From: Chiloscyllium plagiosum
Lineage: Eukaryota
NCBI RefSeq assembly: GCF_004010195.1
Contig: NC_057751.1
Location: forward strand, 1,463,167 to 1,527,166
Reading direction: 5' to 3'
Length of the DNA stretch: 64,000 bases
The notes beneath the pieces are model-generated. The model was not told the DNA's origin. It saw only the letters and a list, made by a program, of their open reading frames with translations, and searched no databases. Below, piece after piece: positions 37,393 through 62,775 of the stretch. The position numbers and the translations under genes are program-made. Every line of letters begins with the position of its first letter. Position 1 is the stretch's first letter.

Positions 37393-37554
37393 CTATCTGG
37401 AAACATAGGTGTATGTGCGGGGTGCTGACTGTGTTCCATCACCTTGTTCCAAGGGCACATTGAGAAAATCCCAGATCAAAATGGTGTCGTCATGTGAACT
37501 ACTCACAATCTGGAACTCGTCAAACTGCAGTCGGAAAACTCTCCCGGAATGCTC
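37393..37554 (-). CDS. BTRC-like: beta-TrCP last coding exon (exon continues to 37362)
   Basis: [53 protein letters not shown]; donor CG|gtaagc 31 nt after the stop. Confidence 0.94.
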
Positions 37555-61700: not shown

Positions 61701-62775
61701 CCCTGTATTTTGCATTCAAATTTGACCTTACAAAGCGAATTACTTCACACTTTTCCAGGTTGAACTCCACTCAGTTGGTTCCCTGTTTCAAGTTGTTCTA
61801 GATCTCAACTTGCGATGGGAAAAAAAGGGCTTATTTCCTCGCTTTTTCCTGCTGGTGCTCTGATTGGGTACCTTCAGTTTCTGAACTTTAGCCAATAGTC
61901 AACAAACGTCTCCTCATCAAATCTATCTGTGACTTTCAGCACTTCTGTTAATCTCACTTCAGCTTTCTCTGAACTAAGGGAAACAACTGCAGGCTCCACT
62001 ATTTCTATAAGTCCCTGGACCCTGGGATCACCTGGGAAATCTCTCCAAAGGATTGAACCAGACCAATACTTCAACTGAGATCATATTCAAGTTTGTGAAG
62101 GTTTAGAATAACATCCTTGCTTTTGAACTTGATGTCCCACTTCACAAAAATCAATGATCCCTTCTGAGCAGTCAACTTGCTGTGGCATCTTTCAATAACC
62201 TCTCGATTATGCTGCTGTGTAAAATGGTCCTTACTCAGTTCGTAGGTTCCCTTCATCCCTCCTCCCAAAATATGATGTATCACAGTTTGTCTCTTGCATT
62301 TGCCCCCTTCCCAAACAGCTTTATGTCCTTCCCAATTCTGTTCCTGTACTTCACAAAGCTGCATTTTCCCAGCTGTGTGTCACCTCTGCACTTTGATGTC
62401 TTGCACCCCCTGGCTTTTACAGTCAATGTAAAATAAAAATGATGTTCACACAGACTCCTCGCAAATACCACTGGGTAGCATCTGGAAAACAGCAGCTCAC
62501 CGCTAAGTATTCTGCTCTTTGACTGATTTTATCTATGCTGCAACTGTTGCTCCATTCCCACACATGAATTTTTCCAAACGGGTTACGATGTAGGACATGA
62601 ACACCTTTTGAAAATCCATAAACACACAAAACCATCTTATCACCGCCCTCTCTGAAGCTTCACAAAGCCCCGGACTGTTACCTTCTAGAGTCAATGCAGA
62701 AATACAACAGAGGTTAAATCGTCAGCTTACCATGTATTCCACTATCTTGTCATGCAGTATGGAGTCAGAGTCCAT
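37393..62775 (-). CDS. BTRC-like: beta-TrCP family F-box/WD40 protein (BTRC/FBXW11-like), spliced CDS: join(62731-62775,56415-56492,55315-55546,52121-52307,47858-47954,46889-47026,46599-46717,45416-45665,44244-44362,42576-42686,40493-40571,37393-37554), 1617 nt, 538 aa
   Basis: 12 GT-AG exons in consistent phase with no stops. D-domain, F-box ([18 protein letters not shown]) and seven WD40 repeats nearly identical to beta-TrCP; ends RTYTYVSR*. An in-frame ATG at 62778 could add one Met. Orthology (BTRC, FBXW11 or a third paralogue) is unresolved. Confidence 0.93.
38985..40085 (-). mobile_element. CR1 LINE 3' part with a short inverted CR1 tail inserted at about 39425-39520
   Basis: [42 protein letters not shown]. 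Confidence 0.9.
40128..40450 (-). mobile_element. HE1-type V-SINE
   Basis: Reversed head, V-domain and tail. Confidence 0.88.
40493..40571 (-). CDS. BTRC-like: beta-TrCP WD40 exon
   Basis: [26 protein letters not shown], 79 nt. Confidence 0.95.
40660..40873. mobile_element. Palindromic Penelope-type element with hammerhead cores on both strands; TSD gaacagcctca
   Basis: + strand CTGAAGA-AGAGC-TTAT-GCCC-GAAAC (40749-40773); - strand CTGAAGA-AGGGC-TTAT-GCC-GAAACGTC (40716-40742). Confidence 0.8.
41800..42300 (+). repeat. 33-bp minisatellite (gtactgagggagtgctgcactgtcggagggaca), about 13 copies plus 2-3 variant units
   Basis: Directly visible; produces 11-aa periodic spurious ORFs. Confidence 0.97.
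42576..42686 (-). CDS. BTRC-like: beta-TrCP WD40 exon
   Basis: [37 protein letters not shown], 111 nt. Confidence 0.95.
43178..43718 (+). mobile_element. Candidate solo LTR (about 540 bp)
   Basis: TGT...ACA ends, near-TSD tgat/tgag, AT-rich body, AATAAA about 80 nt before the end. Confidence 0.5.
43725..44190 (+). mobile_element. Decayed CR1 RT fragment
   Basis: gtaccacaaggatcagta (VPQGS) and gaatttgcagatgat (FADD) remnants. Confidence 0.7.
44244..44362 (-). CDS. BTRC-like: beta-TrCP WD40 exon
   Basis: [40 protein letters not shown], 119 nt. Confidence 0.95.
45416..45665 (-). CDS. BTRC-like: beta-TrCP WD40 exon
   Basis: [25 protein letters not shown]...[10 protein letters not shown], 250 nt. 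Confidence 0.95.
45711..45885 (+). repeat. (GAGAGAGAGAAC)n 12-bp microsatellite
   Basis: About 13 copies; pyrimidine-rich on the gene strand, just upstream of the acceptor at 45665. Confidence 0.95.
46087..46385 (-). mobile_element. HE1-type V-SINE
   Basis: Reversed copy with tail, V-domain and head. Confidence 0.9.
46599..46717 (-). CDS. BTRC-like: beta-TrCP WD40 exon
   Basis: [40 protein letters not shown], 119 nt. Confidence 0.95.
46889..47026 (-). CDS. BTRC-like: beta-TrCP WD40 exon
   Basis: [46 protein letters not shown], 138 nt. Confidence 0.95.
47858..47954 (-). CDS. BTRC-like: beta-TrCP linker exon
   Basis: [32 protein letters not shown], 97 nt, ttgcag/gtaaga. Confidence 0.93.
48368..48455. 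repeat. Degenerate hexamer repeat (ACCCTG/ACCCGG-like)
   Basis: 6-nt periodicity visible. Confidence 0.6.
48596..50790 (+). mobile_element. Decayed CR1 RT to 3' end containing a 666-bp tandem duplication
   Basis: [13 protein letters not shown] and SQYGFV...WIEFFE...VYMHFSKA; the block at about 48763-49420 is repeated at about 49429-50090. Confidence 0.9.
51678..52130. repeat. About 41-42 bp minisatellite containing the beta-TrCP exon end and 5' splice site
   Basis: Unit ccctgagcaccgtccttaccatcccctcccctccctcctgt alternating with a ggctctaccatcccgt variant, about 11 copies. Confidence 0.95.
52121..52307 (-). CDS. BTRC-like: beta-TrCP F-box exon
   Basis: [63 protein letters not shown], 187 nt. 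Confidence 0.95.
52640..53350 (+). mobile_element. CR1 3' end with a roughly 125-bp internal duplication, interrupted by a Penelope-type palindrome at about 53010-53175
   Basis: [16 protein letters not shown]...SRTRGHSL (twice). Confidence 0.85.
53745..54400 (-). mobile_element. CR1/HER1 3' end
   Basis: [32 protein letters not shown]. Confidence 0.9.
54093..54225 (+). mobile_element. Penelope-type short element with a hammerhead-like core; TSD catgcccttcat
   Basis: CTGATGT-AGGAGC-GTC-GCTCC-GAAAGCTA; 12-bp direct repeats flank it inside a CR1. Confidence 0.75.
55315..55546 (-). CDS. BTRC-like: beta-TrCP D-domain exon
   Basis: TKLSNGT...[47 protein letters not shown], 232 nt. Confidence 0.95.
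55655..55875. repeat. Compound (CA)/(CT) microsatellite
   Basis: Directly visible. Confidence 0.9.
56415..56492 (-). CDS. BTRC-like: beta-TrCP exon ([26 protein letters not shown])
   Basis: cttcag acceptor, CAG|gtgaca donor, 78 nt. Similar to BTRC NSSEREDCNNGEPPRKIIPEKNSLRQ. Confidence 0.85.
60745..61770 (-). mobile_element. CR1 3' end
   Basis: [13 protein letters not shown]...[16 protein letters not shown]. Confidence 0.9.
61012..61228. mobile_element. Palindromic Penelope-type element nested in the CR1
   Basis: Same family as 14964 and 40660; minus-strand CTGATGA-AGGAC-TTAT-GCCT-GAAACGTC; flanks cttaaaa(t/g)ta. Confidence 0.75.
61990..62640 (-). mobile_element. Old, decayed CR1 fragment
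   Basis: [13 protein letters not shown] remnant and a DFQKVF-like ccttttgaaaatcc. Confidence 0.5.
62731..62775 (-). CDS. BTRC-like: beta-TrCP coding exon 1 ([15 protein letters not shown])
   Basis: ATG...ATG|gtaagc. 15 aa, similar to FBXW11 MEPDSVIEDKTIELM. Confidence 0.82.

Follow-up and report, generated by a model that had tools for sequence, protein, structure and literature searches.

Vertebrates are usually credited with two genes for beta-TrCP, which marks other proteins for destruction and has Wnt, NF-kB, Hedgehog, circadian and cell-cycle substrates under its control. For bony vertebrates, PMC2446394 places Btrc/Fbxw11 at two of four paralogous blocks only, with none at Fgf17/Npm2, and names Slc2a15, Dpcd and Fgf8 as markers of the BTRC locus. 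Other ohnologues retained from the two early vertebrate genome duplications (2R), namely Fgf8/17/18/24, Npm1-4 and Kazald1-4, lie in the same four blocks and show the same kind of lineage-specific loss (PMC2446394 and PMC12955574). Here we analyze a window of 64,000 nucleotides (nt) from Chiloscyllium plagiosum (G000:C42:1463167-1527166), in which positions 37393-62778 hold a complete beta-TrCP gene belonging to a third vertebrate lineage, outside both BTRC and FBXW11.

The gene comprises 12 exons on the minus strand, running from 62778 to 37393, with GT-AG introns (exon ends snapped to AG/GT). Its open frame of 1620 nt encodes 539 amino acids (aa) from the first ATG and 538 from the second (62775), in agreement with a preliminary description of this DNA that had reported a complete 538-aa beta-TrCP upstream of NPM2 on the same strand. 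The product is identical over 539/539 residues to the RefSeq protein XP_043537121.1 (P0128), recorded as 'beta-TrCP-like [Chiloscyllium plagiosum]'; databases thus already hold a prediction of the gene, though vaguely named. The D (dimerization) domain is recovered over its full length by PF12125 (90.5 bits on the protein, cut-off 25), residues 109-539, spanning the F-box and the propeller, align without gaps to human beta-TrCP1 (PDB 1P22), and six stretches of the protein score above threshold for the WD40 family PF00400. F-box families are precomputed for P0004, which is 97% identical to the window protein. The phosphodegron pocket, described earlier as intact, conserves 10/10 of the degron-contact residues listed in PMC13097077 (equivalents in Table 1 below); 20 of the 21 sequence motifs noted previously were found in frame, and PARGLD spans the exon 3/4 junction.

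In domain order and degron contacts the protein is the same as bony BTRC (beta-TrCP1, FBXW1A; PDB 1P22, 6TTU), to which it is 83-85% identical in the bowfin, lungfish, frog and human records, and it likewise has the architecture and pocket of FBXW11 (beta-TrCP2; PDB 6WNX), at ~82-83% identity. Bony BTRC, however, forms a separate clade and lies beside SLC2A15, DPCD and FGF8, whereas the window gene lies beside XPO7, NPM2 and FGF17 and, unlike BTRC, has neither the 30-aa exon nor the optional CSxPRSLW one. The optional second exon present in BTRC and FBXW11 records is missing from it. FBXW11 has its own clade and its own locus on contig C14, near NPM1 and an XPO7 paralog.

To place the gene among its relatives, homologue searches and cluster listings were combined into a set of 353 proteins, 348 of which have at least 300 aa. 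Nine lineage-diagnostic words partitioned the latter set, with 19 of the 348 proteins carrying 7-9 words, one carrying 2 and the rest 0-1. All 19 window-type proteins come from sharks and rays (16 named species); the full-length records are 94-98% identical, and many bear the name 'F-box/WD repeat-containing protein 1A'. White shark, smooth-hound, horn shark and basking shark each possess, besides the window-type protein, a second protein of BTRC type (P0116, P0139, P0140 and P0141, respectively). These are true BTRC orthologues, fast-evolving and 78% identical to the window protein, with an intact pocket in the three that were aligned. FBXW11 constitutes the third protein type in other sharks and rays, and no BTRC-type protein was seen among ray records. 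The listings, which covered 15 of the 24 members of the window clade, held no chimaera or lamprey record, and an N-terminal homologue search that scored 7 candidates returned 2 shark proteins, which is weak evidence on other lineages.

Phylogenetic inference was performed quickly on 41 rows and carefully on 23, 22 and 21 rows, leaving out isoforms, partial records and most invertebrates. All trees recovered three vertebrate clades: the window lineage (support 100/100), FBXW11 (99-100), and a BTRC clade that takes in the shark BTRC-type proteins and leaves the window gene outside (96 in the Shimodaira-Hasegawa-like approximate likelihood ratio test, SH-aLRT, for the quick tree; 99-100/96-98 for the careful trees). 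Support for the vertebrate beta-TrCP clade was 93-100/95-99. The three careful trees place the window clade as sister to BTRC at 92/88, 98/91 and 93/89, and the quick tree left its sister group open, with hagfish; BTRC as the sister of the window clade is favoured, with moderate support. Approximately unbiased (AU) tests reject a grouping of the window clade with shark BTRC (p 0.022 under LG+G4, 0.0036 under a mixture model), and equally one with bony BTRC that leaves shark BTRC out (p 0.0067 and 0.0049, respectively). Nesting within the BTRC or FBXW11 clade, the outcome that the preliminary description had set against its proposal of a third paralogue, was looked for, and the window lineage lies outside both, with the AU tests rejecting inclusion in BTRC. 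Since sharks as well as bony vertebrates fall within the BTRC clade, the split of the window lineage precedes the divergence of the two groups, and the vertebrate clade places it later than the branching of the invertebrate chordates.

The gene had previously been portrayed as a mosaic of BTRC and FBXW11 characters, a portrayal that did not hold. At the 32 columns separating bony BTRC from FBXW11, the window lineage has the BTRC state in 24, the FBXW11 state in 3 and a state of its own in 5, and this column analysis rules out a mosaic or recombinant origin. FDQW, ISRM and WKGLSE, supposedly FBXW11-like, are found in non-mammalian BTRCs as well, and the 'BTRC-like' words are for the most part ancestral states shared with hagfish or amphioxus; the mosaic look arose because the comparison had been with mammalian sequences. 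The lineage carries 24 further private residues relative to both known paralogues.

Genome searches with exon 8 (2 matches among 26 candidates) and with the D-domain model (2 among 124) returned the same two loci, the window gene and the FBXW11 gene on C14, which lies beside RANBP17 and NPM1 and looks intact, none of the ten exon matches examined containing a stop. The window gene was ruled out as an assembly duplicate of FBXW11, since 10-12% of exon 8 residues differ, and as a processed copy, given its 11 introns. When the white-shark BTRC-type protein served as query (52 matches out of 76 scored, in a stricter first look), two further items emerged, an FBXW11 retrocopy on contig C16 and a decayed exon set on contig C22. 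The former (L043, G000:C16:611391-611759) is an intronless FBXW11-derived fragment with stops. The latter consists of 14 collinear matches at 44.330-44.467 Mb, covers 352/604 positions of horn-shark BTRC, and carries 8 in-frame stops and several frameshifts; at 44.411 Mb, in the expected order, there is an exact 9-residue trace of the 30-aa exon of BTRC type, although it is weak alone (E 0.6). Beyond it on C22 are an SLC2A15-like gene (44.50-44.53 Mb), FGF8 (44.75 Mb) and DPCD (44.95 Mb), and because these genes mark the BTRC locus the decayed exon set is true BTRC. BTRC in C. plagiosum is thus a multi-exon unitary pseudogene, and the intact beta-TrCP genes found in this genome are two only, the window gene and FBXW11. 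A count of two loci, which the preliminary description had held to speak against a third paralogue, is nominally what was obtained, but a third locus exists as the BTRC pseudogene and, lying at the FGF8 site, it turns the locus count into support for a third lineage.

The gene order on the window contig (C42) is XPO7, beta-TrCP, NPM2 and FGF17, all four on one strand. The FGF gene, expected to the left of the window, is present at C42:1.385 Mb, ~76 kb away, and its exons read almost identically to skate Fgf17 (by eye, supplementary file 8 of PMC12955574); FGF genes on C22, on C1 and on the unplaced contig C100263 match skate Fgf8, Fgf24 and Fgf18, respectively (by eye, same supplement). Among these genes, FGF exon scores are highest for the C42-C22 (323) and C1-C100263 (314) pairs, with cross pairs at 218-254, and lysyl-oxidase-like genes are found on both C42 (4.9 Mb) and C22. 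In published work, xpo7 and fgf17 are among the common neighbours of npm2b in bony vertebrates (PMC6233590), the second duplication is held to have produced the Fgf8/Kazald1 and Kazald3 blocks as a pair (PMC12955574), and Kazald3 is grouped with Fgf17/Npm2 (Table 1 of PMC2446394); the last two together give the same pairing as the one favoured by the beta-TrCP tree. Trees, AU tests and synteny support the earlier proposal of an ohnologue from the NPM2/FGF17 paralogon kept in cartilaginous fish, and we regard it as very probable that the window gene is a 2R ohnologue from the FGF17/NPM2 block.

Several observations weigh against this reading, some generally and some in favour of a particular alternative. 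Most of the BTRC states common to the window gene and BTRC are ancestral, 21 of the 24 columns having the same state in outgroups (hagfish, amphioxus or starfish). The trees hold a single cyclostome, a hagfish of unsettled position, with lamprey and chimaera unrepresented, and it is from partial protein listings that absence from bony fish is read. The 100/100 grouping of the BTRC pseudogene with shark BTRC comes from a row constructed along the horn-shark protein, and so biased towards that clade. Gene neighbourhoods were compared in the C. plagiosum genome only, the assembly of which is fragmented (101,977 contigs), leaving room for a further unassembled copy.

Among the alternatives, a small-scale duplication of the BTRC ancestor on the jawed-vertebrate stem after 2R, landing between XPO7 and NPM2, would make the gene a third paralogue without making it an ohnologue. 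The tree, which says no more about the date of the split than that it preceded the divergence of sharks and bony vertebrates, is compatible with such an event, similarly old local duplications are reported in the region (npm2a/npm2b; PMC6233590), and the window gene is without two optional BTRC exons and spans 25 kb, against ~140 kb for the pseudogene. It nevertheless lies inside the paralogon, oriented to its FGF as the BTRC pseudogene is to FGF8, where a random landing is unlikely; its ancestral introns are kept, so that it is not a retrocopy, and its favoured sister relation to BTRC agrees with both the FGF17/FGF8 similarity and the published block pairing. We therefore consider this origin improbable. 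Less probable still is an origin inside cartilaginous fish, by duplication or relocation of BTRC, with unequal rates obscuring the relationship. Such an origin would account for a lineage seen only in sharks and rays, and for 9 residues, 4 of them in exon 1, that the window clade has in common with shark BTRC and that bony BTRC lacks. The white-shark BTRC-type (P0116) and window-type (P0126) proteins, moreover, are listed on contigs of equal size (122,117,421) with accessions 23 apart; in horn shark and smooth-hound the two types lie on different contigs. The AU tests given above reject this grouping under both models, and shark BTRC keeps the BTRC exon set and shares with bony BTRC 15 residues absent from the window gene and FBXW11. 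Least probable of all is an ohnologue sister to FBXW11 that moved into the NPM2 block, a grouping that the AU test rejects under LG+G4 (p 0.041) and does not reject under the mixture model (p 0.12), but which requires an extra translocation and runs counter to the three careful trees and to the 3/32 diagnostic columns.

As a 2R ohnologue, the window gene would likely have arisen beside BTRC, as its sister, when the vertebrate genome was duplicated for the second time, with reciprocal loss between sister copies as the favoured mechanism for what followed. Bony vertebrates would have kept BTRC and likely lost the window copy, as far as records show, and elasmobranchs would have kept the window copy under strong constraint. 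Fixed changes number 8 in the F-box and 6 in the D domain of shark BTRC, against 3 and 3 in the window clade, and the stem of shark BTRC has a length of 0.15-0.18. Judging from branch lengths and the pseudogene, the conserved third copy may have relaxed selection on shark BTRC, which would have sped up before being disabled in the C. plagiosum lineage.

By analogy with the human protein, the window protein would dimerize via its D domain and bind SKP1 via its F-box, and its propeller would recruit doubly phosphorylated DSGxxS degrons of the IkB-alpha and beta-catenin type to the SKP1-cullin-F-box (SCF) complex for ubiquitination; its role should be that of an ordinary SCF substrate receptor. 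The preliminary description had it as an extra receptor, which applies only to the four sharks that also have a BTRC protein and not to C. plagiosum, with its two intact genes; there, the gene probably replaces BTRC functionally. In those four sharks BTRC is fast-evolving, it is a pseudogene here, and it is unseen among ray records. Given their many fixed changes in the F-box and D domain, the shark BTRC-type proteins may bind SKP1 poorly. More tentatively, sharks and rays could have switched a core ubiquitin-ligase receptor between ancient duplicates, the window gene being the conserved working partner of FBXW11 throughout and BTRC, its F-box eroded in the four sharks, being lost long after the genome duplication; the surviving shark BTRC might then even be a degron-binding protein partly uncoupled from SKP1.

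Comparison of four public runs (X1, X2, X19 and X20) with window positions 42350-45700 demonstrated that the window gene is spliced. In two of the four runs, X1 (contig of 2209 nt) and X2 (3050 nt), exons 8, 9 and 10 are connected precisely at their GT-AG sites and without a mismatch; both are only presumed to be RNA, and no processed copy of the window gene was found in the genome searches. X19, recorded as RNA, has 3 raw reads that cross from exon 10 into exon 11, whereas X20 has no reads on the region. Mapping of run reads to the exons, as suggested in the preliminary description, thus yielded junctions in three runs.

No description of a third beta-TrCP was found in the literature (subscription journals, figures and bioRxiv supplements being outside the search), and beta-TrCP has no hits in the main text and nine supplementary files of PMC12955574 (figures outside the search). 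This third beta-TrCP appears to be undescribed, although retained ohnologues themselves are a known phenomenon. The chemistry of the protein is probably ordinary and its interest evolutionary. Its existence means that the jawed-vertebrate ancestor had at least three beta-TrCP genes, and that many shark and ray records named 'F-box/WD repeat-containing protein 1A' are not BTRC orthologues and will mislead orthology and expression studies. The order XPO7, beta-TrCP, NPM2, FGF17 helps reconstruct the ancestral block, and the contrast between three-gene sharks and the BTRC-less C. plagiosum provides a natural test of late reciprocal ohnologue loss.

Table 1. Coordinates of the window beta-TrCP exons, of NPM2 (both in window positions) and of the BTRC pseudogene (genome positions)
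Feature	Position	Strand	Remarks
Exon 1	62731..62778	-	two in-frame ATGs, 16 codons; agrees with the P0128 N-terminus
Exon 2	56415..56492	-	26 aa; homologous to the BTRC 26-aa exon
Exon 3	55315..55546	-	D (dimerization) domain; PF12125 95 bits in genome search
Exon 4	52121..52307	-	F-box; gap-free alignment to PDB 1P22
Exon 5	47858..47954	-	linker
Exon 6	46889..47026	-	linker helix and first WD40 repeat; Y271, R285 equivalents
Exon 7	46599..46717	-	WD40; S309, S325 equivalents
Exon 8	45416..45665	-	two WD40 repeats; N394 equivalent; spliced to exon 9 in runs X1, X2
Exon 9	44244..44362	-	WD40; R431, G432, S448 equivalents
Exon 10	42576..42686	-	WD40; R474, Y488 equivalents; 3 X19 reads run on into exon 11
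Exon 11	40493..40571	-	gene model and loose-end consensus from run reads
Exon 12, coding part	37393..37554	-	last WD40 repeat, tail, TAG stop
NPM2 (nucleoplasmin)	8844..13960	-	four coding exons: 13960-13875, 11576-11466, 11277-11184, 8977-8844
BTRC pseudogene	G000:C22:44330469-44467032	+	loci L154-L156, L073-L083; ~140 kb

The 512-aa isoform records of relatives skip exon 2, judging by length. Tandem arrays with units of 33, 12 and 41 bases occupy intronic positions 41881-42299, 45712-45883 and 51676-52134, respectively, those with 12-base and 41-base units starting within ~50 bases of exons 8 and 4. An interspersed intronic repeat at 43180-43650 reaches a depth of ~5900 in X1, from diverged copies. 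For electric ray (P0005/P0133) and zebra shark (P0135/P0252/P0127) the window-type records fall into two sets apiece, possibly local or assembly duplicates.

On the right side, an exportin-7-family gene on the same strand ends ~8.3 kb upstream of the beta-TrCP start codon. It was called from PF25795 and IBN_N matches in two of the five exons scanned and from a genome search, and we take it to be XPO7, as distinct from RANBP17, on synteny and on its known sequence; for an XPO7 exon, ESM Atlas gave no usable match and PDB no match. The nucleoplasmin exons lie 23 kb downstream of the window beta-TrCP, on the same strand. The one exon tested exceeds the Pfam cut-off for PF03066, with Xenopus nucleoplasmin and NPM2 as best PDB matches, before NPM1; the first and last exons of NPM2 were not located. 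ESM Atlas identified the FGF exon to family level only.

On C22, FGF8 lies between SLC2A15 and DPCD, unlike the bony-vertebrate order given in PMC2446394, a difference that points to either an inversion or an error in scaffolding. No NPM3 turned up near FGF8 (C22 44.16-44.79 and 44.93-45.00 Mb) or anywhere in the genome, and LBX/TLX homeobox motifs were found neither in C22 44.16-44.76 Mb nor in C42 1.36-1.83 Mb. FGF24 and an NPM4-like gene at C1 8.18-8.51 Mb mark a fourth block, in which the search with the white-shark BTRC-type protein reported no beta-TrCP match. The exportin-7-family gene accompanying FBXW11 and NPM1 on C14 is the second of its family in this genome (RANBP17), and FGF18 lies not on C14 but on the unplaced contig C100263. 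At C14:66740973-66749477, two head-to-head NPM1-like genes, 6-15% different in the compared exons and separated by a 986-base gap, look like a real inverted duplicate.

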